Origin: Asaia bogorensis
GTDB lineage: Bacteria > Pseudomonadota > Alphaproteobacteria > CACIAM-22H2
NCBI GenBank assembly: GCA_945892765.1
Contig: CAMDDQ010000002.1
Location: 3,427-67,426 of the forward strand
Direction of reading: 5' to 3'
DNA: 64,000 nt
The notes under the pieces were generated by a model, which saw only the letters and a list, made by a program, of their open reading frames with translations, made no database searches and was not told the origin of the DNA. Both the position numbers and the translations under genes were made by a program. Shown piece after piece: positions 3,284-48,571 of the stretch; the stretch's first letter is position 1, and each line of letters begins with the position of its first letter.

Positions 3284-3310
3284 CCCCGTGGATAACCTCC
3301 CCGTCACGCC

Positions 3311-3350
3311 AAAAAAGGAGCCCTCCGTATCAAATGATACGGAGGGCTCC
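3311..3350 (-). terminator. Rho-independent terminator on the minus strand: a 15-bp perfect stem with an AAAT loop, followed by T6.
   Basis: The plus strand reads aaaaaa GGAGCCCTCCGTATC aaat GATACGGAGGGCTCC. On the minus strand this is a hairpin followed by TTTTTT, immediately downstream of the stop of the 3379-4248 gene. Confidence 0.7.
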
Positions 3351-3378
3351 CTTGTCGGCAATCCAACCTATGACGGGG

Positions 3379-28917: not shown

Positions 28918-29738
28918 GGCGACTCCGCATAGGCGCGCAGCAGGCGGCCGGCGCGTTGCCTTAGTAGCCAGGGCATCGGACCGAAGTAACGGCCTTCGCC
29001 CGTCTGCGGCTCCGCTTTGGCGGTGCCGGCGACAAAACATGCGAGCAGATCAATGGTCATGCGCGCGCACAAAATGGCGGTATGGCAGCGCAGATTGACG
29101 ACATTCATGCCCTTGATGCGGCCGATGGGCTCGGCGGCGTAAATCGCGCCGGTATCGATTCCGGCGTCGATGCCGTGCAGAGTGACATTCATATCCTGGG
29201 GTCGCCCTTCAAGCACCGCCCATAGATTGGTGTCGAGGCCGCGATAGGCCGGCAATTTTCCGCCATGGGCGTTGACCGTGCCGAGCCTTGGCGCATCGAA
29301 GATCCGCGCCTTGACCACGCCGGTGCCATAGACCAGTTGAAGGTCCGGCGACGCCTCGGCAAGCGCCGCCGCCGCGTCGTCATCGTTGATGGATCGTACC
29401 TTTTTGACCGAGAGAGATTGGGGCAGGCTGCTGTCGCCATCGGGGAAGAAAAGTGAATTTTCGAACTCGGCTTGGGCGCGGGCGAAGGATAGGGGCTGGA
29501 AATAGGGGTTGAGCGCAAGGCCGCGCCATAGATTTGGGAAAGTCTGCCGCAAGTGTCGCTTCGCGTTGCGGCCCCACGGATAGGGCCTGGTCTCGAACAG
29601 CGCGAGAACAAGTTCGACACGTTCCGGCTTCTCCCGCCACAAGCGGCGAAGATAATAACGGTGGTGCGGTGTGTCGGTCGTAAGCACGGCAACCCGAATG
29701 ACGCCATCCCGCTTCGTGGAGCCGGCATCTTCGTTCAT
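28914..29738 (-). CDS. Formyltransferase (Fmt / ArnA-N-terminal-like sugar N-formyltransferase).
   Basis: 'NAHGGKLPAYRGLDTNLWAVLEG' resembles the formyl_trans_N H..LP.YRG motif. Start ATG at 29738 overlaps the upstream stop. Confidence 0.6.
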   Translation of the reverse strand: MNEDAGSTKRDGVIRVAVLTTDTPHHRYYLRRLWREKPERVELVLALFETRPYPWGRNAKRHLRQTFPNLWRGLALNPYFQPLSFARAQAEFENSLFFPDGDSSLPQSLSVKKVRSINDDDAAAALAEASPDLQLVYGTGVVKARIFDAPRLGTVNAHGGKLPAYRGLDTNLWAVLEGRPQDMNVTLHGIDAGIDTGAIYAAEPIGRIKGMNVVNLRCHTAILCARMTIDLLACFVAGTAKAEPQTGEGRYFGPMPWLLRQRAGRLLRAYAESP

Positions 29739-31663: not shown

Positions 31664-32499
31664 TTATGCGCCGGGGCATATTGAATAATACAAACGACGC
31701 GAACGCCACCGCGGCATCGAGAGCCGAAATGCAGGCAGTTCGAGGTGTCGACGAATGCCCCTCGGCCGGCCGGACCGACCAGCGCAACGGCGTCTTCGGG
31801 GCGGCAATGTTGAAACACTTCTTCGTCGCTCAGGCGAGTATCGCCCGAATATGAGCGGCGCTCGTAGGATGTCGCGCCGCGAACGCGGGACGTAACATCC
31901 GCCGGCAGAAAGGTCAGGGGGCCGCTTTCGGGTCCGACGTCCAGCACATTGAGGAATGCCTGCAGGAATCCCACGCTCGGTTTATCGAGGTGGTAAAGCT
32001 CGCTCTGGATTGAGGCGGCGCGGCCTGGGGACACGCAGAGCATGATGTTTTGCAGGCGCGGCATCGTGCCGAAATAGCCGGCGGCGATCTCTACCATCGC
32101 GGGCGACAGGGCCGCGTCGAGAAAGGCGGGGCGATCGAGAATGTCGCGCGATGTCAGGATGTCATAGAAAGGCTGCGCCCCATCTTGAGGTACGGAACTC
32201 GCGCGTTCGGCGTAAAGCGCCTGCCCGGCGGAAACCAACGCCGCGACCTCCGGGACGATCGATGAATCGATAGGCGCAAATCCCTTCGCCCGGGGAATGT
32301 GGTTCCCCCGCGGCGACCCCGCCGACACCGATCGGGCGACCCTGCGGCGAGGCCAGCAATCCAACGGCCGGCGCGCAACGTCCAGGGCCTCCGCGGCGAC
32401 CCTGATCGCCGGAAAGGGCAAGCCCGCGCGCAGGCCGTAAATGAACATCATTTCTTGGACCGGTGTGCGGCGCGGTTTGATTTTGGCGGGGACGTCCAT
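31564..32499 (-). CDS. Putative Fe(II)/2-oxoglutarate-dependent oxygenase (PhyH-like).
   Basis: 'LYHLDKP' (HxD) and a later 'NCLHFGS' His, consistent with the PhyH facial triad. The match is weak. Confidence 0.35.
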   Translation of the reverse strand: MDVPAKIKPRRTPVQEMMFIYGLRAGLPFPAIRVAAEALDVARRPLDCWPRRRVARSVSAGSPRGNHIPRAKGFAPIDSSIVPEVAALVSAGQALYAERASSVPQDGAQPFYDILTSRDILDRPAFLDAALSPAMVEIAAGYFGTMPRLQNIMLCVSPGRAASIQSELYHLDKPSVGFLQAFLNVLDVGPESGPLTFLPADVTSRVRGATSYERRSYSGDTRLSDEEVFQHCRPEDAVALVGPAGRGAFVDTSNCLHFGSRCRGGVRVVCIIQYAPAHKCRPSFSGRFDGHRFGGDPIRSLLLDGARPRSE

Positions 32500-33403: not shown

Positions 33404-34420
33404 TCACTCGATTGCCTCGGGCGTGAGCGCCTCGAACGCCGCGATGCGCCGCCGAAGCCTGCGGCCGGAAAGATGAGGCGCATCAGCTGGGGACAGCGGT
33501 CCCTCCGGACGAATGATCTTGATGTCAGTTTCGGCGATCCTGTGGCCGGCATCGAGGTCGCGTGCAGCGTAAAGCCCGCGGCGCATGCGCCGGCGCATGG
33601 CGTCCTCGCCCGGCGCCGGAATCTTTTGTCCGTTGCCTAACATCCGTTCAATGCGGCGGATCGAGGTTACCAATCCCGCCATACCGACGGGATCAAGCGA
33701 CAGCGGGTGATCGCCGGGGCGCTGATTGCTGTCCAGCGTGAAGTGCTTCTCGATCACCCGTGCCCCCAACGCCACGGCCACGATGGGTGCCTCGGCGCCG
33801 ATCGTGTGGTCGGAGTAGCCCAGCGTGACATCGGGGAACCGGGCGCGCATGGTCTTAAGCGCGAGCAGATTGGCGTCCTCGTCGGGCAACGGATAAAGCG
33901 ACACGCAGTGCAGCAGCACAAGCCGTTCGGCCGGAACCAAAGCTGCGGCCCCGGCGACTTCGTCAAGCGTGGACATCCCCGTGGACAGCAGCACCGGCTT
34001 GCCGGTCGCGGCCCCGGCACGGATCAATTGGTGGAACGTGAGATCGCCTGAAGCGATCTTGATTGCCGGCATGCGTGGCGCCATTGCGTCAAGGATGTCG
34101 AGGGCGAATGGTGTCGTCAGGAAGTCGATTCCGAGGCCCGCGCAACGGTCGATAATTCGATCATAGGTCTCGGGGGGAAGCTCCAAAGATTTGAATCGTT
34201 CGAACTGGGATCTATAGGCGCTTCCGGCCATCGGCATCGGCGCGGCATTTGGGTGAATCAGAGACCCGGCGTCATAGGTCTGAAATTTGACGGCATCAGC
34301 GCCAGCGCCAGCCGCTTCCTCCACGAGTCGCAGCGCGACCGTCGAATCGCCATTGTGGTTGCCGCCGATCTCCGCGACGACATAGACGTGGCGGCCCAGG
34401 TCGGTGCGGCCGATGATCAT
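33404..34420 (-). CDS. NeuB-family nonulosonic acid synthase, paralog 3.
   Basis: 'VYVVAEIGGNHNGDSTVALRLVEEAAGAGADAVKFQ' with a C-terminal SAF domain. Start at the internal ATG (34420). Confidence 0.8.
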   Translation of the reverse strand: MIIGRTDLGRHVYVVAEIGGNHNGDSTVALRLVEEAAGAGADAVKFQTYDAGSLIHPNAAPMPMAGSAYRSQFERFKSLELPPETYDRIIDRCAGLGIDFLTTPFALDILDAMAPRMPAIKIASGDLTFHQLIRAGAATGKPVLLSTGMSTLDEVAGAAALVPAERLVLLHCVSLYPLPDEDANLLALKTMRARFPDVTLGYSDHTIGAEAPIVAVALGARVIEKHFTLDSNQRPGDHPLSLDPVGMAGLVTSIRRIERMLGNGQKIPAPGEDAMRRRMRRGLYAARDLDAGHRIAETDIKIIRPEGPLSPADAPHLSGRRLRRRIAAFEALTPEAIE

Positions 34421-34421
34421 C

Positions 34422-35834
34422 CTAGGTCGCGACCCCGTGAGGGGCGGAACCGGCGCCCTGCCATGAATCGGCGCCACGGGTCATGTGTTGCGCCGTCCAG
34501 TAGTCGAAGGGCGTGGCGATGCGCAGCGCATCATAGGGCGCCAACTCGATATGCCCGACGGCGCGGCCGAACAAATCGCTGCCCGAGATCAGATTTTCAG
34601 CCTTTAATGCGTACAGGCCGCCAGCCTCGCGGTAGATGACGTCGCGATCCTGGCGCACGACTCGTTTCTGGTAGCCGACCGGCGTGAGTCCGAATCGTCC
34701 GACTTTCCAGTGATAGGTGAGGTCTTCCACGACCGCGACGACCGAATCTGTATCGTAGAGCAGTAGGGTATCCAGCGCCTCTACGACATGGTCGCGGCGA
34801 ATGAAAGGCGATGTGGGATGGATGATCAGGACGAGATCCGGCTGATATCCATCGTCGGCCTGAAGGCGGTGCAACAGGTCGGTCAAGACCGCCTCGAACG
34901 CGATGGCCGGACTGTTCAGCGCCTTGCTACGCAGGAAGGGAGCCTCGGCGCCGGCCGCCCGCGCTGCATCCGCGACCTCGGCATCGTCGGTCGAGACAAC
35001 AATGCGCTCGATCATTTCGACGCCGCGGAGCTTATCGATGCAGCGGGCCAGCAGGTTGCCGTTCTCGAGGGATAGCAAGGGCAGCTTCGATCCATTGAAC
35101 CGGTCGGCCCTCGCCGGAAGGACGGCGAGGACCCGCCGCTGGAAGCGTTCGCGATGTTCTGCGACGAAGCGGTGTTTGACCGCCCGCCGCGTTTCCATCC
35201 GCCCTTCCCAGTTTCGAGACATGCTCTTGCCGTGCTCGCGGCGGAAGTAGAGCGGCAACGATACATTCCGAACTTGGAACTTTTCGATGAACTTGATCCA
35301 GAAGTCATAGTCTTCTTGGTAGCGAATGGACTCATTGTAGCCGCCGATCGCGTCGAAACAGGGGCGGCGATACATGGCGCCGGCGGCCGGCGCGGAGCGA
35401 TCGAGCAGCTCCACCTCTTCATTCACACGGTAGTGTCGTACGCGCTCGATGATGTCGCCATGCGAATCAACGGCGACGAGGTCGCAGAAGACAAGTCCAA
35501 TATCGGGGTGACGATCGAGATAGGTCGCCAGCACCAGAGCCAGGTTTTCGTCGTACCAGTCATCAGCGTCGAGTCGCACAATGTATTCGCCCGTCGATGC
35601 GGCGATCCCGCGATTGCAGGCGGCGGCCAGGCCGATCCCGGCGGTGCGGACGATCTTCAATCCGGGTCTTCCCTCATAACGAAGGAGAATTTGAGGCGTT
35701 TCATCGGTCGACCCATCGTCGACGACGACGACTTCGACCGCCGCATAATTCTGGCTGAGCGCGCTGTCCAGTGCGCGCGGCAAGTATTTCGCGTAGTTGT
35801 GCGCAGTGACGATGATGCTGACGGGAGTAGGCAC
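34422..35834 (-). CDS. Bifunctional fusion: an N-terminal GT2 glycosyltransferase and a C-terminal NeuA-like CMP-sugar cytidylyltransferase.
   Basis: N-terminal 'VSIIVTAHNYAKYL...VVVVDDGSTD...RLDADD' GT2. C-terminal 'LAVLPARADRFNGSKLPL' CTP_transf_3 signature. GTG start overlaps the upstream TAG by 1 nt. Confidence 0.7.
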   Translation of the reverse strand: MPTPVSIIVTAHNYAKYLPRALDSALSQNYAAVEVVVVDDGSTDETPQILLRYEGRPGLKIVRTAGIGLAAACNRGIAASTGEYIVRLDADDWYDENLALVLATYLDRHPDIGLVFCDLVAVDSHGDIIERVRHYRVNEEVELLDRSAPAAGAMYRRPCFDAIGGYNESIRYQEDYDFWIKFIEKFQVRNVSLPLYFRREHGKSMSRNWEGRMETRRAVKHRFVAEHRERFQRRVLAVLPARADRFNGSKLPLLSLENGNLLARCIDKLRGVEMIERIVVSTDDAEVADAARAAGAEAPFLRSKALNSPAIAFEAVLTDLLHRLQADDGYQPDLVLIIHPTSPFIRRDHVVEALDTLLLYDTDSVVAVVEDLTYHWKVGRFGLTPVGYQKRVVRQDRDVIYREAGGLYALKAENLISGSDLFGRAVGHIELAPYDALRIATPFDYWTAQHMTRGADSWQGAGSAPHGVAT

Positions 35835-36601
35835 TATTCTCTGTCTCCGCGTAGCCTGACGTTGATTGACGAGTCGATCTCCATCGCCGGTACTTGGCTG
35901 TTCAACGCGACGATTTCCGGATGGGCGTCAAGCCAGGCGATAATTTCCTTGAGCCGCGGGGGATTGCCTCCGAAGGCCTCATAGACCGCGCGGACGACGG
36001 CAAGGTCCTGCGGCGTGTCGATCGTCAACCGCAGTTCCGGCCGCCTTAGCGCGGGGTCGGCGACTGCGAATTTGCAAACATTGAATCGATCCGGCCGGCG
36101 AATCATCAAAGTCATGTACTCGCTGGCCTTGGGGTCTTCGGCGAGATCATGGCAGCGTTCGAGCGCCTTCAACGACATGACTTCGCATCGCGTGCCGCGC
36201 GGCGGATCCTCCGTGTAGGTATAATCGGCGCCGGCCTCTTTATGGGCCGCCAGCAACTGGTCCATGATTTCCGGATCGGTCAGCGGATTGTCACCCGTAA
36301 TCCGGACGATTGTGTGGGTGGCTCGACTCCAAGCCACCTCGATGAAGCGCGACATCACGTCGAGCTCGTCGCCACGGTAGACGCGCGCGCCGATCGTCCC
36401 AGCCAGTTCCTCAAGCGGATCGTCGTCCGGGTTCGTCGATGTACACCAGACGACATCCTCCGAAAGCCTCGCCTGCGAGACACGTTCGTGAAGTCGAAGA
36501 ATCAATGGTTTGCCCACGAGGTCGGCCAGGGCCTTCCTGGGAAGCCTTGAGGATTTTAGCCGTACGGCAACCAGGGCCAGCGTGCCGCTATGCGGGATCA
36601 T
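35834..36601 (-). CDS. CMP-sugar cytidylyltransferase (SpsF/PseF-like), second stand-alone copy.
   Basis: 'LALVAVRLKSSRLPRKAL' signature. Confidence 0.7.
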   Translation of the reverse strand: MIPHSGTLALVAVRLKSSRLPRKALADLVGKPLILRLHERVSQARLSEDVVWCTSTNPDDDPLEELAGTIGARVYRGDELDVMSRFIEVAWSRATHTIVRITGDNPLTDPEIMDQLLAAHKEAGADYTYTEDPPRGTRCEVMSLKALERCHDLAEDPKASEYMTLMIRRPDRFNVCKFAVADPALRRPELRLTIDTPQDLAVVRAVYEAFGGNPPRLKEIIAWLDAHPEIVALNSQVPAMEIDSSINVRLRGDRE

Positions 36602-37590
36602 GGGAGATCCTCCGCCAGGATCGGCTCGTCAGGCAGTTTGGCCGCCGCCAACAGCCGTCCCGCGAGCCGTTCAACGTCCGACTCGCTTAGCCCGGCCCGA
36701 TTGGTGCGCTTAAAGACCGCGTCTTTGGCGGTGAGGTGGTGGTCCCTGGGCAATGAACCCGCGGCGACAGCCTGCCGTTTCATCTCGTAGCGATACTTCG
36801 TCTCCGCGGGCGAGAGTGCGTCGCCGCCGTCGCCGAGGGATGTCCCGACGAGGCGCAGGAATCGCGTGAAGTCGGCGAACTCGGCGGGCTCGAGCGCCGA
36901 GAAATGGTCGCGACCCTTCCTCGACCGATCGTCCGTCACGTGTTTTTCAATGACCTCCGCTCCGGCCGCGAGCGCCATCGCCGGCAGGGTTCGGGCTTGT
37001 TCGCGGGCCGATGCGTCGGTGTGATCGGCAAATCCGACCGGCAACCCGAAACGCTGCTTCAAAGCCGGAAGTCGCGCGAGCTTCATGTCCTCTATCCGCG
37101 TGGGATAGCTCTGAAATCCGTGCATGAGCGTGACGCGCGCCTGGGTGAGGGGACTAATGACACCCAGCGCCGCGGCAATCTCTGCGTCCGTGGCGCCGCC
37201 GACGGCAAGGTGCAGGGGCTTGCCCGTGTGCGCCGCCGCCGCAAGGAAACGAAGGTTCGCGATATCCGAGGTAGGAAGCTTGTAGCCGCTGACGCTGCCG
37301 CTGCCTTCGGCCAGGTCCAAGCTAGGCTCATCGAAGGCCTCAACCCAAATTGCGACCGACGCACCGCGATATTCCGCAAGAATTTCTCGCCATGTTTCGG
37401 CGGCGATTTCGATCTGTCCAAAGGATTCGAATTTCGGATGGAAACGCGAAATCAGCGCGTCGCGGCGGAAGATCTGGAATTTTACCGCGTCAGCTCCGGT
37501 TCCCGCGGCCAGTTCAAACAATCGCCTTGCCAGCGCGGGGTCGCCTTCGTGAGCGGAGGCGATCTCGGCAACGATATAGGGAAGGTTCAC
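36598..37590 (-). CDS. NeuB-family synthase, paralog 4 (divergent).
   Basis: 'YIVAEIASAHEGDPALARRLFELAAGTGADAVKFQ' with a C-terminal SAF domain. 330 aa. Confidence 0.75.
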   Translation of the reverse strand: MNLPYIVAEIASAHEGDPALARRLFELAAGTGADAVKFQIFRRDALISRFHPKFESFGQIEIAAETWREILAEYRGASVAIWVEAFDEPSLDLAEGSGSVSGYKLPTSDIANLRFLAAAAHTGKPLHLAVGGATDAEIAAALGVISPLTQARVTLMHGFQSYPTRIEDMKLARLPALKQRFGLPVGFADHTDASAREQARTLPAMALAAGAEVIEKHVTDDRSRKGRDHFSALEPAEFADFTRFLRLVGTSLGDGGDALSPAETKYRYEMKRQAVAAGSLPRDHHLTAKDAVFKRTNRAGLSESDVERLAGRLLAAAKLPDEPILAEDLP

Positions 37591-37631: not shown

Positions 37632-38771
37632 CTATATCGCGGTCGCGTCGTGGCGCCGCTGTTCTTCGGCCTTATCGGCGTGATGTTCGTGGTGATCGAC
37701 ATCGGCGCGAATGAAGCGGCCCGGCGCGGACTCCGATTCCTTCGCCAGCCGTTCGCGTTCGGCCAACTCGGTTGGGCTCATCTTCCGCCATTCATAGGAC
37801 GTCATGACGAAGCAGCCCTTGCAGGGGTCGAATTCGTCCAGACGACCGCTGCGATTCCAGTCGCGCAGCGTCTCCATGCGTTCGCCCTTCCAGATGTCTT
37901 TGAGCGGCACCTTCGTCGCGTCGCCGATGGTATAGGTGCGCTCCCAATCCGAACAGCAAGGGAAGACCTTGCCGTCGCGGGCGACGATCATGCGCTGCCA
38001 GGGCTGGTTGCACCGCTTGCGTCCGACGGCGATCTGGTCGCCGCTGTAAAAGGCGTTGCCTTGGCCGCGGTCGCTGACATCCTTGACCGCGATGTCGTCG
38101 GCGATCTCCTTCCACATTTCAAGAAAACGATCGACCTCGGCCTGATTCTCCTTCATGCGCACCATTTGAATGCGGATGAACGGCTTGACGCGGCCCTTGG
38201 CCTCTCGAACTTCGTGGAATTTGCGGATGTTGGCAGTCAGGCGGTCGTAATCCGAGCCGACCCGAACTTTCTCGTAGGTCTCCTTGGTCGCCCCATCCAT
38301 GGAAAAAATGATGCGGTCGAGACCGGCATCGATCAGCTTCTCGATGCGCTTTTGCGTGTAGGGGATGCCGTTGGTGTTGATCTGGACCTCGAGGATTCCC
38401 TTCTTCTTGGCGTAAGCCACGAGGTCCTCGAGCCCGGTGTGCAAGGCCGGCTCGCCGCGCCAATTGAACTTGATCGATTTCGTGCCGCCGGCGGCCGCCT
38501 GATCGATGGTGGATTTGGCGAAAGACATGTCCATGCGACCGGTGATCGGAACCCCGGTCGTGCCATGAACGCACATGATGCAGCGCAGATTGCAGGCCTC
38601 CGTCACCTCGATGTCGAGATGCAGGGGGAACGGCGTCACATGATCGTATTTCGCGACGAATCCCCATTTGGCCCGATAGATGAAGAAATTGAGATCGAAG
38701 CCGCGCTTGGCCCATTCGAGCGCCGCGTTGATCTTGCGGGCGAAGCCGTTGATTTCTTCATACTTGGCCAT
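37632..38771 (-). CDS. Radical SAM enzyme with a C-terminal SPASM/twitch-like Cys cluster.
   Basis: 'EVTEACNLRCIMCVHG' CxxxCxxC. C-terminal 'CNQPW...FPCCSDW...CKGCF'. Start at the internal ATG (38771). Confidence 0.75.
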   Translation of the reverse strand: MAKYEEINGFARKINAALEWAKRGFDLNFFIYRAKWGFVAKYDHVTPFPLHLDIEVTEACNLRCIMCVHGTTGVPITGRMDMSFAKSTIDQAAAGGTKSIKFNWRGEPALHTGLEDLVAYAKKKGILEVQINTNGIPYTQKRIEKLIDAGLDRIIFSMDGATKETYEKVRVGSDYDRLTANIRKFHEVREAKGRVKPFIRIQMVRMKENQAEVDRFLEMWKEIADDIAVKDVSDRGQGNAFYSGDQIAVGRKRCNQPWQRMIVARDGKVFPCCSDWERTYTIGDATKVPLKDIWKGERMETLRDWNRSGRLDEFDPCKGCFVMTSYEWRKMSPTELAERERLAKESESAPGRFIRADVDHHEHHADKAEEQRRHDATAI

Positions 38772-39774
38772 GATGCGTCCCACTGTAGCCGACTTCGCCC
38801 GCTTGCCTGAAATAGTCGAAGGTGCGGCGCACGCCTTCTTCGAGTGCAATTCGCGGCATGAAATCAAGCAATCGAGCCGCTTTGGATATGTCGGCGAAGC
38901 TGCGGCGGACCTCGCCGGCACGCTCCGGATGGTGCTTTAAACCGATTGTCCGACCGGTGCCGTGGCGAACAACTTCGGTGATCAAAGCGGCGAGCTCGTT
39001 GACCGTGCTTTCGGTTTGGGTGGCGATTTGGATGACTTCGCCGCCGATTCCGGGGCGAGTCGCCGCGCGAAAAATTGCCTCGATCAGATCGTCGACAAAG
39101 ACGAAATCGCGGCTTTGGTCGCCGTCGCCGTAAACCTCGAGAGGTTTGCCGGCCAAGGCACGCTTCAGAAAGGCGGCGACGACGCTGTCCTTGTGCGCCG
39201 ATCCGGGTCCGTAGACATTGCCGAAGCGCAGAGCCACGGTTTCAATGGCGAATGTGTGGAAATAGGCGCTGCAATAACCCTCGCCCGATAGTTTGCTCGC
39301 GCCATAGGGGGATTTCGGCCGGGGCGGCAGATTCTCGTGCAGCGGTGGGGCATGATCGCCCAGCGGTGCGGCCGACGATGCGAAGACAAATCGCCCGACG
39401 CGGTTTTTGCGCGCTGCCTCCAGATAGTTGAGCGTGCCGACCACGTTCACGGCGCAGTCGAAGGCCGGATCGGCGATGGACGACATCACACCGGCGTTGG
39501 CAGCAAGATGGACAATGACATCTGCGCCATCGGCCGCGCGCAAGGCCGCCGCCGCGTCGCGTATGTCGGCGATCATGACTTGGCAACCGGCCCATTCAGG
39601 CCCGGCACCATTGCCGCCCGAGTCGACCGCGTTGGTGCCATCGGGCAATGCCGAGCGCTTACCGGTCGATAGATTGTCGACGACCCGCATGGAAGCGCCC
39701 TCGCCATGCAGCCGCGCGACCAGGGCCGACCCAATGAAACCGCAGCCGCCAGTAATCAGCCAATTCATGCCCAT
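38758..39774 (-). CDS. NAD-dependent epimerase/dehydratase (UDP-hexose 4-epimerase-like extended SDR).
   Basis: 'WLITGGCGFIGSAL' and 'YGASKLSGE'. Confidence 0.8.
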   Translation of the reverse strand: MGMNWLITGGCGFIGSALVARLHGEGASMRVVDNLSTGKRSALPDGTNAVDSGGNGAGPEWAGCQVMIADIRDAAAALRAADGADVIVHLAANAGVMSSIADPAFDCAVNVVGTLNYLEAARKNRVGRFVFASSAAPLGDHAPPLHENLPPRPKSPYGASKLSGEGYCSAYFHTFAIETVALRFGNVYGPGSAHKDSVVAAFLKRALAGKPLEVYGDGDQSRDFVFVDDLIEAIFRAATRPGIGGEVIQIATQTESTVNELAALITEVVRHGTGRTIGLKHHPERAGEVRRSFADISKAARLLDFMPRIALEEGVRRTFDYFRQAGEVGYSGTHHGQV

Positions 39775-40913
39775 TTCACTCGCGGTAGGATGTAGTCCTT
39801 GCGTATGGCGTTGCCGTGACGGCGCACGAAATCGATCATGCCCACAATCAGTTCATCCGAGAGCGGATGGGGCTTCAATCCCAAATCCAGCAACCCGGTG
39901 TTCTTGGGATTGTAGTAGTGCTCTTCGGCCTCGCGCCTAGGGTTGTCGACCGGCCTTATCGCTACCTTGATCCCCGCGGCTTTGCCTGCTCGCTGAACGC
40001 GGTTCGCCAGTTCGTTCACCGAGAAGGTTTCGGTGAATTGGTTCAGTACACGGAATTCGCCGACCTTCGCCGGCTGGCGCAGAGCAAGTGCGACGCATTG
40101 GAGCGTGTCGCGAATGTCGAGATAGCCACGGGTCTGACCACCCTTGCCATACACAGTCAGCGGCTCGCCCGCTACCGCCTGCACGACAAATCGGTTCAAG
40201 ACGGTGCCGAAGATGTCGTCGTAGTTGAACAGCGGCGCGAGACGTTCGTCGGCGGCCAGTTCCTCCGTCTCGATCCCGTAGACCGGCCCTTGGTTCAAAT
40301 CGGTTACGGCAATATTCCAAACGCGCACGGCCAGATAGAGCAAGTCGCTGTCCTGGACCTTGGTCAGGTGATAGATCGATCCCGGCGTTTTCGGATAGAG
40401 GAAGCGATGTTCGCGTCCGTTGTGGGTGACGTCCAGATACCCTTCCTCAATATCTATATTCGGCGTCCCGTATTCGCCCATCGTGCCAAGCTTGACGATG
40501 TGGCAGCCGGGTGCTTTTTCGCGAACCGCCCATACAACGTTGAGCGTCGCCAGAAGATTGTTTTGAACGGTCGCGGCGGCGTGAGGCTGGCTCATCATCG
40601 AAAAAGGCGCCGAGGGTTGCTCGGCATAGTGAACGACGGAATCGGGACCGAATTCCCCGAACAGGCGCCGTAGGAATGCGTAGTCGGTGACGTCGCCGAC
40701 ATGCACGGCGATGCCGCGCCCACCGGCCGCGCGCCAGATCGCGGCGCGCTCGGGCATTTCCGGAACCCCAACCAATGGCTGGCAATCGAGATCGCGGCAA
40801 TTGCGCCGGCGCAAGTAGTTGTCCGCCACTGCCACGTCATGGCCCTGCGCGGCGAGGTTCATGGCCGTCGCCCAGCCGAGATAGCCGTCGCCGCCGAGCA
40901 CGAGCACTCTCAT
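39765..40913 (-). CDS. UDP-sulfoquinovose synthase homolog (SQD1/SqdB/Agl3 family).
   Basis: Near-identity to the SQD1 signature: 'VLVLGGDGYLGWATA', 'HYAEQPSAPFSM', 'VKLGTMGEYGTPNIDIEEGY', 'YHLTKVQDS', 'TDLNQGPVYGI'. Confidence 0.8.
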   Translation of the reverse strand: MRVLVLGGDGYLGWATAMNLAAQGHDVAVADNYLRRRNCRDLDCQPLVGVPEMPERAAIWRAAGGRGIAVHVGDVTDYAFLRRLFGEFGPDSVVHYAEQPSAPFSMMSQPHAAATVQNNLLATLNVVWAVREKAPGCHIVKLGTMGEYGTPNIDIEEGYLDVTHNGREHRFLYPKTPGSIYHLTKVQDSDLLYLAVRVWNIAVTDLNQGPVYGIETEELAADERLAPLFNYDDIFGTVLNRFVVQAVAGEPLTVYGKGGQTRGYLDIRDTLQCVALALRQPAKVGEFRVLNQFTETFSVNELANRVQRAGKAAGIKVAIRPVDNPRREAEEHYYNPKNTGLLDLGLKPHPLSDELIVGMIDFVRRHGNAIRKDYILPRVKWA

Positions 40914-42085: not shown

Positions 42086-43624
42086 TCAGGTGGCTTGTTG
42101 GAGAACGGCATTCACGTCGCTTTCGCCAAGGCTGTCGATTAGGCCCCCAAACGCGTTCTTTACGGCGGCGTCCAAGAGTGGCTCGGTCTGACCCTTGGTC
42201 TTGAGAGCAAAATTGTGCATATCGAAGGAACAGGCGATAGCCGCAGCCAGGAAACGGCTTCCATCCTTCCATGCCTTTTCGGCATCGACACCGTAGAGCG
42301 CGCGCTGAATGAACCCTTTGATTTGCGCCTCATCAATAACCGTCATGACGTGAGGGGCCATCGCATACATATTGTGTCGGCCGAACGTAATGACTGGCCG
42401 ACCGAGTGCCGCGGCTTCAAATCCCGCGGTCCCGGTAATGGTCACCGTAAATGCGGCCCGTCGCGCGCAATCAATGCCGCTTTCGCCCACATGGAGAAAG
42501 ACGACATTCTTCAAATCACCGATCTGATCGTAGAAATCGGTTGGCCGACGTCCGAGGGTGTAGAGATTTTCCTTGATCGCGAGAACGACACCCGCCGGTA
42601 GATCGCGGGCGATGGAGAGAATCGCGGCATGTTGGTTGAAGTATTCCGGAGACATGAGTTGCAAACTGGTTTCCGGCTCCTTGTGCAATGGGAAATATGC
42701 AAAGCGTCGGTCGGCAAGATCGGCAAGCCGGATGGTGCGTGAACCTGTCATGCGACGATAGGCGGCGTGTTCCCGAAGCGGGAAAGAAACGAACTCGCCG
42801 AAATCGAAACTCCGGGCTTTCTGATAGCCGCGTAGTTTCCAGTAGCCGTAGCTCAACGCGGCTACCGCGGCGCGGCGCAAACTTGTCGCGAGCGAGTGGC
42901 CGGTAAACCAGGTTTTCTTGGCGACAGCCATGCTGTAAGGCTGCTCTATTGTCGATTCCGGCCATGATGTCATGGCATGATAGGCGCGCTCGACCGCTGG
43001 GTTGAAGTAGTACTCGGTCGGCGTCCAATACCAGTAGTTTTTGTAGCGGCTCGTATCGAGTCGACGATAGAGAATGCCATGGGCGCGCGCCATCACGGCA
43101 GCGTCCTTGTCGCCTTGAAGCAGGATGGTCAGACCCTTGCCCTCGATTTCGCGGCGCCAGAAATCGAGCAACTCGCTATGCGCGTGCAGCATCTGGATAT
43201 AGCTGACGTCCCGATAGTGCTTCGATCGCGGGTAGTGAAAACTGCCGGGGCTGAAACCGCGTCCGAAATGCCGGTGGATGCAAGCAATCAGGCTGAATGT
43301 CGTGTCGCTCAGCTTCTCGAACGCCTGGGCGCGGGCGATGACCTCGGTTTCGTTCAGATCCGTGGCGCGCATGGCTTCCGGAATAACGTTGTTGTTGGAT
43401 ACGGAATCCCAGCGGCCGTGGGCGTTCATTTCTCGGAAGGCGCGGAGTTCCTCCGGACTGCGAACGTAAAGGTGGATCTTGGAGCCGTACCGCTCCTTGA
43501 GGCGGTCCGCCAGCTTGAGCGCGAGATCGCGCCAAACCGCGCGCACCTCAATCCCAACGCTGGCGAATCGACGTGACGCCGTCGCCTCATCGACATCTGG
43601 CGAGAATCCCGTGGCCGAACTCAT
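42086..43624 (-). CDS. Capsule-polysaccharide-biosynthesis (KpsS/KpsC-like, Capsule_synth) GT-B protein. Putative CMP-ulosonic-acid transferase.
   Basis: 'FAYFPLHKEPETS' and C-terminal 'TVTITGTAGFEAAALGRPVITFG' resemble KpsS/KpsC family motifs. The assignment is from memory of the family profile, not a computed search. Confidence 0.5.
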   Translation of the reverse strand: MSSATGFSPDVDEATASRRFASVGIEVRAVWRDLALKLADRLKERYGSKIHLYVRSPEELRAFREMNAHGRWDSVSNNNVIPEAMRATDLNETEVIARAQAFEKLSDTTFSLIACIHRHFGRGFSPGSFHYPRSKHYRDVSYIQMLHAHSELLDFWRREIEGKGLTILLQGDKDAAVMARAHGILYRRLDTSRYKNYWYWTPTEYYFNPAVERAYHAMTSWPESTIEQPYSMAVAKKTWFTGHSLATSLRRAAVAALSYGYWKLRGYQKARSFDFGEFVSFPLREHAAYRRMTGSRTIRLADLADRRFAYFPLHKEPETSLQLMSPEYFNQHAAILSIARDLPAGVVLAIKENLYTLGRRPTDFYDQIGDLKNVVFLHVGESGIDCARRAAFTVTITGTAGFEAAALGRPVITFGRHNMYAMAPHVMTVIDEAQIKGFIQRALYGVDAEKAWKDGSRFLAAAIACSFDMHNFALKTKGQTEPLLDAAVKNAFGGLIDSLGESDVNAVLQQAT

Positions 43625-44916
43625 TCGGCGCCCAACAGCGACATCAGCTTGTCAAGGCGCGGCGGATGGGCCGCCAACAGGCGCTCGCGCTCGACGAAAA
43701 GGCTCCCACCCTCCCAAGGCGCGTCGCTTAATGCAGATTCCAGCCGTCTTTCGAAATCTGGCGCCGCTGGGTTGACGAATATCGTGCCATATCCCTGACC
43801 GAGCGACGTCTCGCCCTGCCGGTCGTAGTGCTCTTCCCGGTAGTCCGCGCAATCGATGAAACGTCCTTCGGGGCTCGTGAATGCGACATTGGTCGGTGCG
43901 TTCACGATCGCCCGCCTGGACAGGGCGATCAGCACCTCTGGATGGGCGAGGCTGACAACGATGTGGGGATCGTGAAGCCAGCCAAGAGTATCGGAGAGGT
44001 AGGCGGCATTTTCGGCGAGAGGATGCGGTCGCACGAGAATCGTCGATTTCCGGCGGAGTTGCCGAAGGGCCATTAGAATCTGGCGGAAAGTCCTTTCTGC
44101 GGAATCGGGCGTGCGTAGATTGGCCGAGCTTGCCGTCTTCGGCGCAAAGAAGCAGTAGATCTCCCCAATTGGGTGCCCCGTCGCCCGCAACCGCTCCCGC
44201 TCGGCCGCCGCTTCGGCGATCACCAAGCGACGCCACGCTTCCAATTGGTTCGGGAGGCCCATGCACAAATTCGGTAGCGGCTGAACTGTGCCCCATCGAT
44301 TCAAAGCGTTCAGATAAAGGGTCTGCCGGTCATGGTAGTGGATCAGCGCATCGGCATCCCGCCCGAACAGCCGTCGCACCATGCTGGGTCCCAAATCCGA
44401 CACCATCAGGCGTGGCTGTACATGAGGATGAATGCCGGCATCGACTCCTCGCCCGCCCGCCAGGATGATGCCGCGGCCACGGCGCAGCCGCGCCAAAAGG
44501 AACCAGACCGGGTATGGGCCCGAGCTGAATTGTCGCCCGGCGAATAGGATCGGCCGCTTCCATCGCAACACCCAAACGCAGATGCGCCCGAATCCCGATA
44601 TTCTTCGCCACCATCGGACCAGGGTATTGGGCGCAGTCTTGGCATCGAGACAATGAAGCGTGCCGCATCGTTCGAGCCCGCGCATCAGCGTCGAATTGCG
44701 CCGGATGAAATCGAAATTCTTGGCGGAGAAGGTGACAAAACGGATTTGCCAGTCCGGCCGGGCTTCCTTCAACGCCAGCGCGGTTGGTAGATAGGTGTCG
44801 AAGTCGATGACTCGGGGCGAAAGCATGAAGACAACAAGACGCCGCCGGGATGCGCGCGCCGGCGCGAACGCAGCAGCGCCGTCCGCCATCGGGGTGTCCG
44901 CGTTCTCCGCCAGCAC
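43621..44916 (-). CDS. Hypothetical TagF-like GT-B protein (putative CDP/CMP-sugar transferase).
   Basis: 'ILVRPHPL' and downstream 'IVNAPTNVAFTSPEGRFI', similar to the HP and C-terminal motifs of glycerophosphotransferase-like enzymes. The match is weak. Confidence 0.4.
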   Translation of the reverse strand: MLAENADTPMADGAAAFAPARASRRRLVVFMLSPRVIDFDTYLPTALALKEARPDWQIRFVTFSAKNFDFIRRNSTLMRGLERCGTLHCLDAKTAPNTLVRWWRRISGFGRICVWVLRWKRPILFAGRQFSSGPYPVWFLLARLRRGRGIILAGGRGVDAGIHPHVQPRLMVSDLGPSMVRRLFGRDADALIHYHDRQTLYLNALNRWGTVQPLPNLCMGLPNQLEAWRRLVIAEAAAERERLRATGHPIGEIYCFFAPKTASSANLRTPDSAERTFRQILMALRQLRRKSTILVRPHPLAENAAYLSDTLGWLHDPHIVVSLAHPEVLIALSRRAIVNAPTNVAFTSPEGRFIDCADYREEHYDRQGETSLGQGYGTIFVNPAAPDFERRLESALSDAPWEGGSLFVERERLLAAHPPRLDKLMSLLGAE

Positions 44917-45675
44917 CTAACGCCGCTTCGCCGGAGAGGTCGCGCGCTGGTCGCAACGCATCATGTCGTCGCGTTCGGCGAACCACTCGGCCGAATATTC
45001 GCAATCCCGGTATTCGTCGAAATAGGGTCCGCCGATTGTGTAGTGGACCAACGCCGCATCGGGTCGGGGCGCTGACACGCCGACCAAGTGGTTCCATTTC
45101 GACGGCAGCTCGCCGATCAGTGAGTCGTCCTCGAGCCATTTAAACTGGTGGAGTTTAAGTCCGTTTGCCGCATTGACATAGGCCGGCGTCAACGCCCGAC
45201 ACCGGTCGCAATTGAACAGCATGACACTCGACCAGTTCTTCTTCCCGTATTTGGACTGCGGCTCATCGAGAAATTTCTTGGTCTCGGACGGGACATGATT
45301 GTGTTTGACCGCCATGACGGCGAAACGTTCGTCACGGAGGTGCCACAACGCGCCGATGTCCTCGCGCATGATCATGTCGCAATCCATGAAGATCGCCCAA
45401 CCGCGATAGTCCACAAGATGCGGCGTAAGGAATCTGGAAAACGAAAAATCCGACGATTGCAACGGCTCGCGCGGCCGCGTGAGTGAGCCGGCGAGTTGGG
45501 TCAACATTAGAGGCACCACACAAACCGGCTGGGTCGCCCGTTTGTGTATGCTGTGGACCAGCACGCTGAAGGCTGCCGCCTCGCGCGGGTCATAACCGAT
45601 GAAAACTCTGATCATTTTGGGAAGGAAACCTTGTGATCTCGGCAAAGCTACCGCAGTCCGGGTGAAAGCCTTCAC
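44917..45675 (-). CDS. Putative nucleotide-sugar glycosyltransferase with a DxD motif (Gly_transf_sug / OCH1 / Gb3-synthase-like).
   Basis: 'IRVFIGYDPREAAAFSVLVHSI' and 'AIFMDCDMIM' (DxD). Confidence 0.5.
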   Translation of the reverse strand: MKAFTRTAVALPRSQGFLPKMIRVFIGYDPREAAAFSVLVHSIHKRATQPVCVVPLMLTQLAGSLTRPREPLQSSDFSFSRFLTPHLVDYRGWAIFMDCDMIMREDIGALWHLRDERFAVMAVKHNHVPSETKKFLDEPQSKYGKKNWSSVMLFNCDRCRALTPAYVNAANGLKLHQFKWLEDDSLIGELPSKWNHLVGVSAPRPDAALVHYTIGGPYFDEYRDCEYSAEWFAERDDMMRCDQRATSPAKRR

Positions 45676-45755: not shown

Positions 45756-46259
45756 CTAGGCGCAGGCGGCCACCGCGTCGAGCGGAAGCCTCACGCGCAC
45801 CGGGCGGCCAAGGAGTTGCAGAAGGACGACAACACGCTGAGAATCGGACCCGTCGTCAAACAACCCGATCTGATCGCTCAATGCCCCGGTGACCACGCGT
45901 ATCCGATCGCCCTTCGCGAAAATTGTCCCCCGGCCAAGGACCACGAAGCCGCAATCATCCTCGCGCGCCCGGATCGCCTCGATCACCTCCGGCGGCACGG
46001 GAATTGGTCCGTCACCGCCCGATACCAGCCGGTGAACGCCGACGGTGGAGTCGATGGAACGCCACCGCTGCCGCTCCATGTCGATGCCAACGAACAGATA
46101 GCCCGGAAACAGGGGGGCGGCGACAATTTCCGCGCGACCCGCATGCCGGCGCTGTTTCTTGTGACGGGGCAGGTAGACGGCGAATTCCTGGCGGCGCAAA
46201 TGCATTTCGGCCTGGGCTTCGGCGCGCGGCTGCGTATGGGCGACGTACCAGCGCTGCAT
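45756..46259 (-). CDS. NusG-family transcription antiterminator paralog (RfaH/UpxY-like).
   Basis: 'RWYVAHTQPRAEAQAEMHL' NGN domain. C-terminal KOW-like 'FAKGDRIRVVTGALSDQIGLF'. It lies directly upstream of, and on the same strand as, the glycan operon. Confidence 0.7.
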   Translation of the reverse strand: MQRWYVAHTQPRAEAQAEMHLRRQEFAVYLPRHKKQRRHAGRAEIVAAPLFPGYLFVGIDMERQRWRSIDSTVGVHRLVSGGDGPIPVPPEVIEAIRAREDDCGFVVLGRGTIFAKGDRIRVVTGALSDQIGLFDDGSDSQRVVVLLQLLGRPVRVRLPLDAVAACA

Positions 46260-46260
46260 G

Positions 46261-46890
46261 TCAGCGGTTCCGTCCGTGCGTGAGCCGTAGCAGATTGGGA
46301 GTCAGGATGCGTTCTGGATCGAAATTTGCTGCGGCTTCGTCAAAGGCGGCCTGCGGTGATCGCGTCTCGGTGAGGATGACGGCATCGACCGTGCCAAGCT
46401 GGCCCGGCAGCCTCGATACCTTCAGCCCGGCGAAAGTGTCGGCCTTACTCTTCGAATCCTGGATGCCGACCAGGACCACGCCATGTTCACGCGCGCATAG
46501 GGTGGCGATTTCCGCCAACTCGCTCGAACCCCACAGGGCGATGCGGCGCCAGTTTCGTTGCTCGCACAGTCCGAACAATTCCGAGAGCTGGCTGCGGGCC
46601 TTGCGAAAAAAATTGAACGACGACGACAGGTATTCCGCGGTCAGCCGGCTTTTTTCGGCGAATCCCTTGGGCGTGAGATAATACGCATAACGCTTCCGGG
46701 GAATTTGCCGGACCTTAATCAATCCCTTGCTCACACACCGGCGCAGATAGGCGTTCGTCAGTCCCAGCGCGATGCCAAGATCGCGGGATGCCGATCGCTG
46801 CGTGAGATCGCTGTTTTTTTCGACGGCGTTGAGCAAACCGAGCGTGATTTCGGTATCGCCCGCGCCCGTCGATGCCTGTGACTTCGCCAA
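46261..46890 (-). CDS. Winged helix-turn-helix transcriptional regulator with a C-terminal Rossmann-like domain.
   Basis: 'TQRSASRDLGIALGLTNAYLRRCVSKGLIKV' wHTH. TTG start at 46890 preceded by an AAGGA Shine-Dalgarno sequence. It is the first gene of the locus. Confidence 0.5.
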   Translation of the reverse strand: MAKSQASTGAGDTEITLGLLNAVEKNSDLTQRSASRDLGIALGLTNAYLRRCVSKGLIKVRQIPRKRYAYYLTPKGFAEKSRLTAEYLSSSFNFFRKARSQLSELFGLCEQRNWRRIALWGSSELAEIATLCAREHGVVLVGIQDSKSKADTFAGLKVSRLPGQLGTVDAVILTETRSPQAAFDEAAANFDPERILTPNLLRLTHGRNR

Positions 46891-46993: not shown

Positions 46994-48571
46994 TCAAGCC
47001 TTCGTCGGAAGGCGTTTGATGGCCCATTTCACCGCGGCATCGTCGGTTCCAGTCGCTCCCTCGACGACGATCTGCTCGCAACGCCGGGGCTTGCCAGCCT
47101 TGCCCAAATAGACGCTCTCCGCGAGCCCGATCCGCCCGCCCGCGACCTGAAGGCGCCAGCCGGGCCCGCGCGGTGGCCGCAACAGCGCCATGGCGCTGTT
47201 TTGCGCGAGCGACACCTGCACTTCGGGATGGATGTGGAAGCGGAGAGCGAAAGGCCGTCCGGCGGGACCGGTCAGGCGATCCTCGCCGCGCAAGTCATCG
47301 CCGGCGGCGGAAAGATAAAGCCGACGATGGTGGATGACGCCGAGCGTGCCGTACCCGTCGTGGCTTGCTTCGATCCAGATATTCTCATCGGCTTCGGCGC
47401 GGCGGCACTCCACGTGCACTGGCCGATGGCCGAGACCGCCATCGGCGAGCAGCTCCGACGAATTGGTGTTGGCAACCACGACGGTGCTGTGGGCGGCGGT
47501 GGCGCGCTGGGCCGTCCGCCACGCGGACGAATCCGCGCGTGTACCGCAATTGACGATCAGGCGTTCGCGGCCGACGCTCATCTCAAAGCTGAGCGTGCCG
47601 GCATGGGCTCTCCGATCGAGCCCCGGCGGCGGTGGCGCGCCGGCGTCGAAAATAACCAGCGTGCGCTCCGCGCTCAGGCGTTGGAAGCCCAGATGCGGCG
47701 CCGCGGCCGGTGGTTTGCCCTTGGCTTCGCTGGCGGCAAGGATAGCGTCGATCTCGGCGCCGTCCTCCTCGCCGCTGTCGTTGAACAGGGCCAGACCGCC
47801 ATCGCCATGCCGAAAGAAGCGGAGCATCGGAGCAACGCGGTCGATGGCGTGATGCAGGGCCTCGGGCACGCCGATGCCGCAATCGCTCAAGAGGACGCGC
47901 AACTCGACAAGAGCCCGCAGCGCTTCGAGTTGGGCGGCCGGCGAACGTTCGACATGTCCGCCGTCCACCAAGATTTGGCGCCCAAGCTCGCGCTCGAGCA
48001 AGGTCAGGCCGCGGGTGAGGAGGGCGTCCCGGCCGGGCAGGCAGGCCCCGGCAAAGATCAATCCCTTGATGGCGATGAGGCGGGCAACTCCGTCGGGCCC
48101 CGCGCCGGCGCTGCGCGCGAGACGGCGGAGTTGCCGGGCGAAGCTTCGGCGGAGGCGAAGGTCAAGGTCGGCGTCGGGTTTGAGAAAATCGTAAGCGCGC
48201 AGCCACGACGTCAAGCGAGCGCCCAGAATGTCGGCGCGCCAGGATACCGGATTCGGATCGCCATGGAGGTCGATCCAGGACGAAACCTCGGCGATAGCCA
48301 GGTTCCGCGCATCGGCGTCGCCCGACGCGCGCAAATCACTCAACCACTCAAAAGAATGGAAGCCGGCGCCAGCCGAATCGCCGGCTTCTGCTCGGGCTTT
48401 TTCTTCGAAGGCAATTTGGGCGCCACGATTGGGATCGCCGGCCCAGGGGTAGGATGGAATGCAATGTGGCCGTGGAACGGCGCCGGTGGTCCAGTCACGC
48501 CACAGCCGCGATAGCCGCGCGATCAATGTGGGCGGGCGAGAACGGGGCGCCTTCCCGGCGGTGCCTTCCAT
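46994..48571 (-). CDS. Heparinase II/III-like family protein (conserved alphaproteobacterial housekeeping neighbour of rpe).
   Basis: 525 aa. 'VDGGHVERSPAAQLEALRAL' and C-terminal Hepar_II_III-like regions. Confidence 0.65.
   Translation of the reverse strand: MEGTAGKAPRSRPPTLIARLSRLWRDWTTGAVPRPHCIPSYPWAGDPNRGAQIAFEEKARAEAGDSAGAGFHSFEWLSDLRASGDADARNLAIAEVSSWIDLHGDPNPVSWRADILGARLTSWLRAYDFLKPDADLDLRLRRSFARQLRRLARSAGAGPDGVARLIAIKGLIFAGACLPGRDALLTRGLTLLERELGRQILVDGGHVERSPAAQLEALRALVELRVLLSDCGIGVPEALHHAIDRVAPMLRFFRHGDGGLALFNDSGEEDGAEIDAILAASEAKGKPPAAAPHLGFQRLSAERTLVIFDAGAPPPPGLDRRAHAGTLSFEMSVGRERLIVNCGTRADSSAWRTAQRATAAHSTVVVANTNSSELLADGGLGHRPVHVECRRAEADENIWIEASHDGYGTLGVIHHRRLYLSAAGDDLRGEDRLTGPAGRPFALRFHIHPEVQVSLAQNSAMALLRPPRGPGWRLQVAGGRIGLAESVYLGKAGKPRRCEQIVVEGATGTDDAAVKWAIKRLPTKA

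Follow-up and report, generated by a model that had tools for sequence, protein, structure and literature searches.

In the 64,000-nucleotide stretch of Asaia bogorensis contig CAMDDQ010000002.1 analysed here (the window), two neighbouring open reading frames, ORF-B and ORF-A, lie in a minus-strand operon with genes for nonulosonic-acid synthesis. The reading that we favour, at a probability of about 0.55, is that both proteins are enzymes of lipid-linked glycan assembly with the glycosyltransferase B (GT-B) fold, ORF-A being of the type of the pseudaminyltransferase KpsS1 and ORF-B likely being another glycosyltransferase. The two genes, which overlap by 4 nucleotides, are placed as follows (aa, amino acids):

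43621-44916, minus strand: ORF-B, operon gene 4, 431 aa
42086-43624, minus strand: ORF-A, operon gene 5, 512 aa

A first-pass annotation had described the pair as KpsS/KpsC-like and TagF-like proteins at the head of the operon, belonging to neither GT1 nor GT2, and as candidate polymerases of ulosonic acids activated with cytidine monophosphate (CMP). Its coordinates, lengths and motif strings agree with the open reading frame list and the position mapping, and the motifs that it quoted recur as conserved family motifs among 42 ORF-A and 36 ORF-B homologues and are not due to chance. The exclusion of GT1 and GT2 stands, neither family being matched in Pfam. The placement at the operon head is approximately right, as three genes (MarR_EPS, RfaH-like and GT8-like) precede ORF-B and ORF-A, and the locus is indeed rich in CMP-nonulosonic-acid synthesis: its genes include four of the NeuB family and three of the CTP_transf_3 family, of which one is fused to a GT2 domain. 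AlphaFold models and Foldseek searches bear out the GT-B fold of both proteins. That both are ulosonic-acid transferases is well supported for ORF-A, while for ORF-B the support is transitive only.

ORF-A and the KpsS1-type transferases

ORF-A is a real gene with at least 228 homologues, up to 78% identical and with E values down to 1e-274. Among the 42 aligned family members, 34 match PF05159 (Capsule_synth) at E ≤ 0.01 (best 4.7e-9), and in NCBIfam 15 match TIGR04396 and 9 match NF046086. When the family profile was searched against the PDB, the sole glycan enzymes found were KpsC (E value of 0.012) and WbbB (E value of 0.32); searches there with the single ORF-A and ORF-B sequences returned nothing relevant. 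Comparison by hhalign with proteins of the E. coli K1 kps region gave 87% for KpsS, 83% for KpsC-N and 71% for KpsC-C, against less than 0.5% for NeuS, NeuE and NeuC, which served as controls from the same locus. The description of ORF-A as KpsS/KpsC-like is thus borne out at the level of its family. The AlphaFold model (pLDDT of 89.7, pTM of 0.89) shows a helical insert between two Rossmann-like domains, and Foldseek matched it to 101 PDB chains at E ≤ 0.001, the 50 best of which are all GT-B enzymes. Judged by this model, ORF-A is a GT-B protein.

KpsS1 was characterised in 2024 as a retaining pseudaminyltransferase using Pse5Ac7Ac (the 5,7-diacetylated form of pseudaminic acid, Pse) and is the founder of CAZy family GT118, as cited in PMC12887879. 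For comparison we used a 480-aa PF05159 protein from an Acinetobacter baumannii psa K locus, which was found by tblastn of plasmid records between wzx and wzy, directly after the psa (pseudaminic acid) module. It was identified as KpsS1 not by accession but by its locus and by Y131-E132, a motif reported for KpsS1 in that paper. The A. baumannii records NZ_CP077849.1 and NZ_CP104448.1 are 3.7-4.1 Mb long and are evidently chromosomes filed as plasmids; the plasmid collection gives no gene table for their K locus.

ORF-A and the KpsS1-type protein are 32.7% identical over 113 aa in BLASTP (E value of 1e-20), and hhalign aligned them over 282 columns at 98.6% (E value of 5e-16); BLASTP of ORF-A with KpsS gave an E value of 1e-3. 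The hidden Markov model of the ORF-A family scored 95 bits on KpsS1 versus 13-18 bits on KpsS and KpsC. By these sequence comparisons, ORF-A is far closer to KpsS1 than to KpsS/KpsC. Both ORF-A and KpsS1 have a PF05159-type C-terminal domain, the common motif 'P-[LI]-H-x-x-P-E ... [AS]PEY ... LP.G ... K-[DE]' and the common loop 'T/S-x-AG-[FY]-EA..GKPV', and both genes lie within or beside nonulosonic-acid synthesis genes. The two proteins differ in that the identity of ~33% is confined to the C-terminal 113 residues, with no alignment over the first ~150 residues, and in that the candidate base Y131-E132 has no conserved counterpart in the ORF-A family, where the region reads 'G-x-K-E' with the E present in 21 of 42 sequences. 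Their loci differ as well: that of KpsS1 combines Wzx/Wzy with a full pse module, whereas that of ORF-A has an ATP-binding cassette (ABC) exporter and lacks pseC, pseG and pseH.

[quoted passage not shown]

42671-42685, minus strand: H314-K-E316-P-E318 (HKEPE, within FPLHKEPE), aligned with YPIHFHPE of KpsS1
42566-42574, minus strand: K351-E352-N353(-L354), aligned with the K-x-H-P of KpsC/KpsS (K-V-H-P, K-P-H-P, K-H-H-P)
42380-42436, minus strand: G-rich block TGTAGFEAAALGRPVITFG, a nucleotide-binding loop common to KpsC (SQYGFEALLAGKPVTCFG), KpsS and KpsS1

In the hhalign alignments, H314 and E318 fall on the Q and D of the QxxxD motif in KpsS (LQVYND) and KpsC (DQTFND), whose Asp is the proven nucleophile of KpsS/KpsC-type enzymes (PMC10148158). 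E318 is present in all 42 family members, P317 and E316 in 41 each and H314 in 30, which makes E318 a candidate nucleophile. The HP histidine of the second motif is replaced in ORF-A by N353; this position holds N, T, H or A across the family, and KpsS1 has K-D-H here. The G-rich block is almost invariant over the 42 homologues.

KpsS and KpsC (GT107) and WbbB (GT99), all retaining β-Kdo transferases, belong by sequence to the same superfamily as ORF-A and resemble it in the nucleotide-binding loop and in a carboxylate at the position of their Asp nucleophile. They are set apart from it by QxxxD in place of HxxxE, by the HP histidine (the general acid for the CMP phosphate) in place of N353, and by the LEDGF/FEEGY base motif of the N-terminal domain, which ORF-A lacks: the aligned residues 189-191 are L, D and T, variable in the family and within a low-confidence stretch of the alignment. 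The N-terminal Rossmann domain is also full-size in ORF-A and reduced in KpsC and WbbB, according to PMC12887879. On the sequence evidence, ORF-A appears to be a divergent PF05159 superfamily member of KpsS1 (GT118-like) type, and it fails the motifs defining β-Kdo transferases. Because of this close relation to KpsS1 and the gene neighbourhoods described below, a role as a nonulosonic-acid transferase is well supported.

ORF-B and its family

ORF-B, too, is a real gene, with homologues up to 47% identical and E values down to 1e-114; NCBI places its start at an ATG nine codons later, which gives a protein of 422 aa (P0121). The AlphaFold model (pLDDT of 91.0, pTM of 0.89) has a plain GT-B fold. 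Foldseek matched it to 264 PDB chains at E ≤ 0.001, led by uridine diphosphate (UDP)-GlcNAc 2-epimerases and GT1 enzymes at TM scores of 0.4-0.5, and the 50 best are all GT-B proteins. A profile search through all of 1.84 billion representatives placed ORF-B in a wider family of 371 clusters (at 50% identity), 197 of them at E ≤ 1e-10 and mostly of ~380-410 aa, whose distant members show homology to the close family along their full length (hhalign 100%, E value of 2.5e-55). Pfam lacks a model for this family, and the libraries searched, CAZy not being among them, give it no name. A word-indexed search with the family profile retrieved close relatives only and no informative names, and the clusters of 10 distant members were likewise unnamed. 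On its model, ORF-B is a GT-B protein of an unnamed family.

Conservation was read from an alignment of 71 sequences, comprising ORF-B, 14 closer relatives and 56 members of the wider ~390-aa family. Its most prominent features are two His-Pro motifs:

44020-44031, minus strand: R296-P-H298-P299 (RPHP), first His-Pro motif; [K/R]-P-H in 70 of the 71 superfamily members
43936-43944, minus strand: H325-P326-E327, second His-Pro motif; H325 in 67 of the 71

R296, H298 and P299 are invariant over the 36 close homologues, and the set conserved in the 71 sequences is K/R35, D40, P44, N74, W228, K/R296-P-H298, H325-P326, S/T342, D/E355 and Y359. As read from the sequences, the set comprises the two His-Pro motifs and, in the C-terminal domain, one position for binding phosphate and one for binding ribose.

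Known transferase families are reached through other members of the superfamily: 13 of the 71 sequences match TIGR04396 (best E value of 2.8e-7) and 10 match NF046086 (best E value of 1.6e-8). PF05159 is matched by only four, at E ≥ 0.097, and not by ORF-B itself. Comparison of ORF-B with NeuE/DUF6716, NeuS, NeuC, KpsS, KpsC and KpsS1 gave nothing significant; a weak similarity near the HP motif, below significance, pointed to the CMP-dependent enzymes KpsC-C (59-61%) and NeuS (24-39%) and not to NeuC (0.2-0.3%). In a hand alignment of 'IYCFFAPKTASS' with 'VILVPGQVEDDAS' of KpsC-C, based on the weak 61% match, ORF-B has no acid at the QxxxD position but S263.

NF046086 covers the Tannerella enzymes Tanf_01245, TFUB4_00887 and BFO_1060, and TIGR04396 is a 'surface carbohydrate biosynthesis protein' family; both are matched by relatives of ORF-A as well as of ORF-B. 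BFO_1060 is the Tannerella forsythia transferase for a legionaminic acid (Leg) derivative, and its family was shown by knock-out in 2017 to add the terminal Pse/Leg of the S-layer O-glycan (PMC5420450). The HP motif, the GT-B fold and the genomic tie to nonulosonic-acid genes are shared with these proteins. The differences are that ORF-A and ORF-B themselves stay above an E value of 0.1 on both models, that neither has a D/E-D/E-G motif when the sequences are read by eye, and that the Tannerella enzymes serve protein O-glycosylation. The simplest reading of ORF-B is that of a further GT-B transferase lineage with a remote tie to TIGR04396 and BFO_1060; the protein is probably a glycosyltransferase, possibly one for a CMP-activated ulosonic acid.

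Gene neighbourhoods and proposed roles

The three cultured relatives of ORF-A all lie beside pse modules, namely in Acinetobacter (L019, record NZ_CP077849.1), on a Klebsiella plasmid (L021) and on a plasmid of Mariluticola halotolerans LMO-2 (L020). Metagenomic homologues (L001, L003 and the contig of P0024) sit among genes for NeuB, Epimerase_2, CTP_transf_3 and ABC_membrane-type exporters, so that each ORF-A relative examined accompanies ulosonic-acid genes. PF05159 proteins had been tied to nonulosonic-acid genes already in 2015 (PMC4487303).

A scan of genome contigs for ORF-B homologues yielded nine loci only, all in metagenome-assembled genomes, and no relatives of ORF-B were found on plasmids. 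Homologues stand at operon heads in L003 and L005, preceded by MarR and RfaH-like genes and accompanied by a methyltransferase and a GT8-like gene, and in L012 and L013, where the regulator genes close by are transcribed divergently and a GT8-like gene is again near. In L008, L015 and L016 they adjoin genes for NeuB and a cytidylyltransferase, and in L009, L015, L016 and L004 a radical S-adenosylmethionine (SAM)/SPASM gene. ORF-B domains are also fused to methyltransferases in P0309 (742 aa), P0161 (735 aa) and P0312 (626 aa), the SAM-methyltransferase domain being N-terminal where the domain order was seen (P0161). These fusions echo the gene order of L003 and L005, in which the methyltransferase gene follows the ORF-B homologue.

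The operon itself has these components for donor synthesis, export and glycan assembly:

36598-37590, minus strand: NeuB, part of the donor-synthesis module (33404-37590)
35834-36601, minus strand: cytidylyltransferase, part of the same module
34422-35834, minus strand: GT2-cytidylyltransferase (CTP_transf_3) fusion gene, part of the same module
33404-34477, minus strand: second NeuB, part of the same module
29735-31663, minus strand: ABC exporter, whose homologues in related loci are ABC_membrane plus ABC_tran
1916-3361, minus strand: Wzy_C/WaaL-type protein, far operon end
881-1909, minus strand: WecA-type initiating transferase, far operon end

A donor-synthesis module of this type adjoins the ORF-B homologues in L008 and L015, and the ABC exporter recurs with homologues of ORF-A and of ORF-B alike. 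The WecA-type and Wzy_C/WaaL-type genes at the operon end imply a lipid-linked glycan. The window and L003 are the only places where homologues of ORF-A and ORF-B come within 10 kilobases (kb) of one another; they are thus independent modules and no obligate pair. The GT2-CTP_transf_3 fusion is kept in L008, L015 and L016, where it adjoins NeuB and a separate cytidylyltransferase gene.

From the genes, fold, homology, motif equivalences and neighbourhoods observed, we infer donor, acceptor, stereochemistry and the roles of catalytic residues as follows. ORF-A and ORF-B would be soluble proteins acting in the cytoplasmic assembly of a lipid-linked surface glycan of O-antigen or capsule type before its export by the ABC exporter. 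ORF-A most likely takes a CMP-activated nonulosonic acid supplied by the NeuB proteins and cytidylyltransferases of the same operon and would attach a single residue of it to a sugar of the nascent glycan. As in KpsS1, KpsC and WbbB, transfer probably occurs with retention, E318 being placed where these enzymes have their carboxylate nucleophile and K351, R360 and the TGTAGFEAA loop being expected to hold CMP. ORF-B is most likely a glycosyltransferase as well, possibly for a second CMP-activated ulosonic acid; H298 and H325 would lie in its nucleotide-binding domain, and the conserved D40 or H195 could be the base.

A further, tentative suggestion is that ORF-B founds an undescribed glycosyltransferase family which, in uncultured Alphaproteobacteria of the sea and of soils, would transfer an ulosonic acid of an unusual kind. 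The family is marked by its twin His-Pro motifs (K/R-P-H ... H-P) and is often fused or adjacent to methyltransferases and often paired with radical-SAM/SPASM genes. Because the operon has four NeuB genes and no aminotransferase, Epimerase_2 or PseG, the sugar of ORF-B might be non-aminated or tailored by the radical-SAM protein.

Several observations weigh against the assignment of both proteins to glycan assembly by sugar transfer. ORF-A itself reaches only 17.4 bits on PF05159 (E value of 0.0034, residues 305-422), below the gathering cut-off of 20 bits, and matches no NCBIfam model, TIGR04396 and NF046086 included, at an E value of 0.1. As no acid is conserved in its family where the general base of KpsC/KpsS aligns, its chemistry may differ. 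ORF-B has no match of its own in Pfam, NCBIfam or the PDB sequences. Its 36 close relatives (39-47% identical) have no meaningful Pfam match, the best stray hit having an E value of 0.0078, and their profile found no PDB sequence. Since the matches to TIGR04396 and NF046086 reach only other superfamily members, the link of ORF-B to known transferases is transitive. The fold search points to no subfamily, because ORF-A and ORF-B have the same generic GT-B matches, and the profiles of the two do not detect each other (0.2%, and 6% and 22% with the wider ORF-B profiles). In L004, an abundant ORF-B homologue has no NeuB gene nearby; its neighbours are a 699-aa membrane protein and the radical-SAM gene. 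Finally, homologues of DegT aminotransferase, Epimerase_2 (NeuC/LegG), PseG and KpsF are lacking from the whole 64-kb window; possibly the operon makes ulosonic acids of an unusual kind, which need not be the classical 5,7-diamino sugars, or some steps of the pathway are encoded elsewhere.

The most serious competitor, though an improbable one, holds that ORF-B is a nucleotide-sugar hydrolase or hydrolysing 2-epimerase in the role of PseG, NeuC or LegG, releasing the hexose that a NeuB-type synthase uses. No gene of the operon is recognisable for this step, as neither an Epimerase_2 nor a PseG homologue occurs in the window, and the fold search ranks NeuC, a hydrolysing epimerase (5xvs, E value of 2.2e-9), first for ORF-B; but ORF-A, a clear KpsS1 relative, has the same epimerases as its top fold matches, which are thus generic to GT-B proteins, and the profile comparison with E. 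coli NeuC gave the 0.2-0.3% noted above. The basic residue K/R35 after the first strand recalls the 'GTRPE' loop of epimerases, and in L008 the order of ORF-B homologue, NeuB and cytidylyltransferase recalls neuC-neuB-neuA. In L003, however, an Epimerase_2 gene is present as well, and the ORF-B homologue lies 10 kb off among GT8, methyltransferase and sulfotransferase genes. Homologues often stand beside the radical-SAM/SPASM candidate for sugar tailoring; they also often stand among glycan-assembly genes, some are fused to methyltransferases, and members of the superfamily match transferase models. Aminotransferases are missing from the window too, and pathway genes may therefore lie elsewhere in the genome.

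Also improbable, and somewhat more so, is that ORF-A is a true β-Kdo transferase like KpsS or WbbB, priming or capping the glycan with Kdo from CMP-Kdo. The PF05159-type homology to KpsS and KpsC speaks for it, as does a KpsF/KdsD-like gene with SIS and CBS domains beside the regulators in the related loci L003 and L005, and WbbB-type Kdo capping is described for ABC-dependent O-antigen systems in PMC12887879. Against this stand the HxxxE in place of QxxxD, the absence of the HP histidine and the far closer relation to KpsS1; the window has no KpsF homologue, and the cultured relatives all adjoin pse modules.

A third rival takes ORF-B as a TagF/TagB-like phosphotransferase that adds polyol phosphate from a cytidine diphosphate (CDP)-alcohol. 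TagF and TagB (PF04464) have the GT-B fold and a CMP-containing donor, and TagF has a His-Pro motif after a strand of its C-terminal domain, a likeness to the R-P-H-P motif of ORF-B, which also has an N-domain histidine (H195); the operon moreover has spare cytidylyltransferase domains. The Tannerella relatives were once labelled 'TagB superfamily' by NCBI CDD (PMC5420450). Yet PF04464 is matched neither by ORF-A and ORF-B themselves (at E ≤ 0.1) nor by the relatives of either, the 36 close and 71 wider ones of ORF-B included, TagF chains appear neither in the PDB profile searches at E values up to 10 nor among the 50 best fold matches, and the operon genes scanned include no TagD-type glycerol-3-phosphate cytidylyltransferase family. 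The TagF-like label of the first-pass annotation is accordingly not supported, and we consider this role very unlikely.

Least probable of all is a processive polymerase of an ulosonic-acid homopolymer, as NeuS is for polysialic acid: KpsC polymerises a short poly-Kdo linker (PMC12887879) and the locus has an ABC exporter, but KpsS1 and the Tannerella transferases, the nearest relatives to have been characterised, attach one residue each, hhalign with NeuS (GT38) gave 0.2% for the ORF-A family and 1.9%, 24% and 39% for the ORF-B profiles of 36 close, 71 combined and 56 distant sequences, only near the HP motif, and at least eight other glycosyltransferases together with the WecA-type and WaaL-type genes point to a heteroglycan. 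The designation of the pair as polymerases has no evidence behind it. The accompanying remark that, sialic acid aside, this function has hardly been characterised for nonulosonic acids is outdated in view of the work of 2015 (PMC4487303) and 2017 (PMC5420450) and of KpsS1/GT118 (2024, cited in PMC12887879).

Apart from those for sialic acid, few transferases of bacterial nonulosonic acids have been characterised, and such enzymes are hard to spot from sequence. The find is useful and mostly extends known biology. ORF-A represents a divergent extension of the KpsS1/GT118-type lineage into uncultured Alphaproteobacteria and ABC-exporter loci, and its family of 42 sequences, with an invariant Glu at the nucleophile position and a dispensable HP histidine, helps to define what this lineage really requires. 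ORF-B draws attention to a sizeable unnamed GT-B family overlooked by present Pfam annotation; should it prove a transferase, it would aid the annotation of many marine and soil glycan loci and offer new enzymes for glyco-engineering. The locus itself is an unusual source of modified ulosonic acids: it lacks an aminotransferase gene and has, besides its four NeuB paralogues, genes of the radical-SAM, sulfoquinovose-synthase-like, amidotransferase and carbamoyltransferase types.

Other genes of the operon and its relatives

The operon is a run of same-strand genes of ~46 kb on the minus strand, from the MarR_EPS-type regulator at 46890 down to the WecA-type gene at 881. Besides the genes given above, the following features were recorded:

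46994-48571, minus strand: heparinase II/III-like protein (Hepar_II_III_C, E value of 2e-69), directly upstream of the MarR_EPS regulator on the same strand
46261-46890, minus strand: MarR_EPS-type regulator, operon gene 1
45756-46259, minus strand: RfaH-like NusG paralogue (operon antiterminator type), operon gene 2
44917-45675, minus strand: GT8-like gene, 252 aa, operon gene 3, directly upstream of ORF-B
39765-40913, minus strand: UDP-sulfoquinovose-synthase-like short-chain dehydrogenase/reductase (NF041015, 441 bits, under the cut-off of 575)
37632-38921, minus strand: radical-SAM/SPASM gene
31564-32499, minus strand: open reading frame of 311 aa with no Pfam family
23752-26950, minus strand: AsnB-like, HisH-like and HisF-like trio
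22619-23728, minus strand: open reading frame of 369 aa with no Pfam family
19042-20688, minus strand: open reading frame of 548 aa with no Pfam family

The transferases besides ORF-A and ORF-B include four GT4 genes, one GT2 gene beyond the fusion and the GT8-like gene, which was found again near ORF-B homologues at five other loci. The operon also encodes two PseB/FnlA-type dehydratases, AsnB-type and HisH/HisF-type amidotransferases, a carbamoyltransferase and methyltransferases. The RfaH 'ops' element GGCGGTAG occurs at chance level only, with no occurrence in a leader region.

Several of these genes recur in related loci. The radical-SAM/SPASM gene is found beside ORF-B homologues in several unrelated contigs (the four loci named above), sometimes directly adjacent, and sugar tailoring is one possibility for its role. 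A 56%-identical copy of the UDP-sulfoquinovose-synthase-like gene lies directly before a NeuB gene in L003. The AsnB/HisH/HisF-like trio resembles the WbuX/WbuY/WbuZ set, which makes acetamidino groups on amino sugars, and hints at an N-acetimidoyl-modified sugar.

On an abundant marine alphaproteobacterial contig (L004, 8415-14540; also L007 and L010), an ORF-B homologue belongs to a four-gene group outside any glycan locus, together with a Glu_synthase-domain protein, the 699-aa multi-pass membrane protein and the radical-SAM/SPASM gene. The 699-aa protein proved to have no relation to ORF-A and matches no Pfam family. Among the window's proteins with no Pfam family, that of 311 aa accompanies the ABC exporter in L001, L003 and L012, and that of 369 aa accompanies HisF, HisH and AsnB beside the ORF-A homologue in L001.

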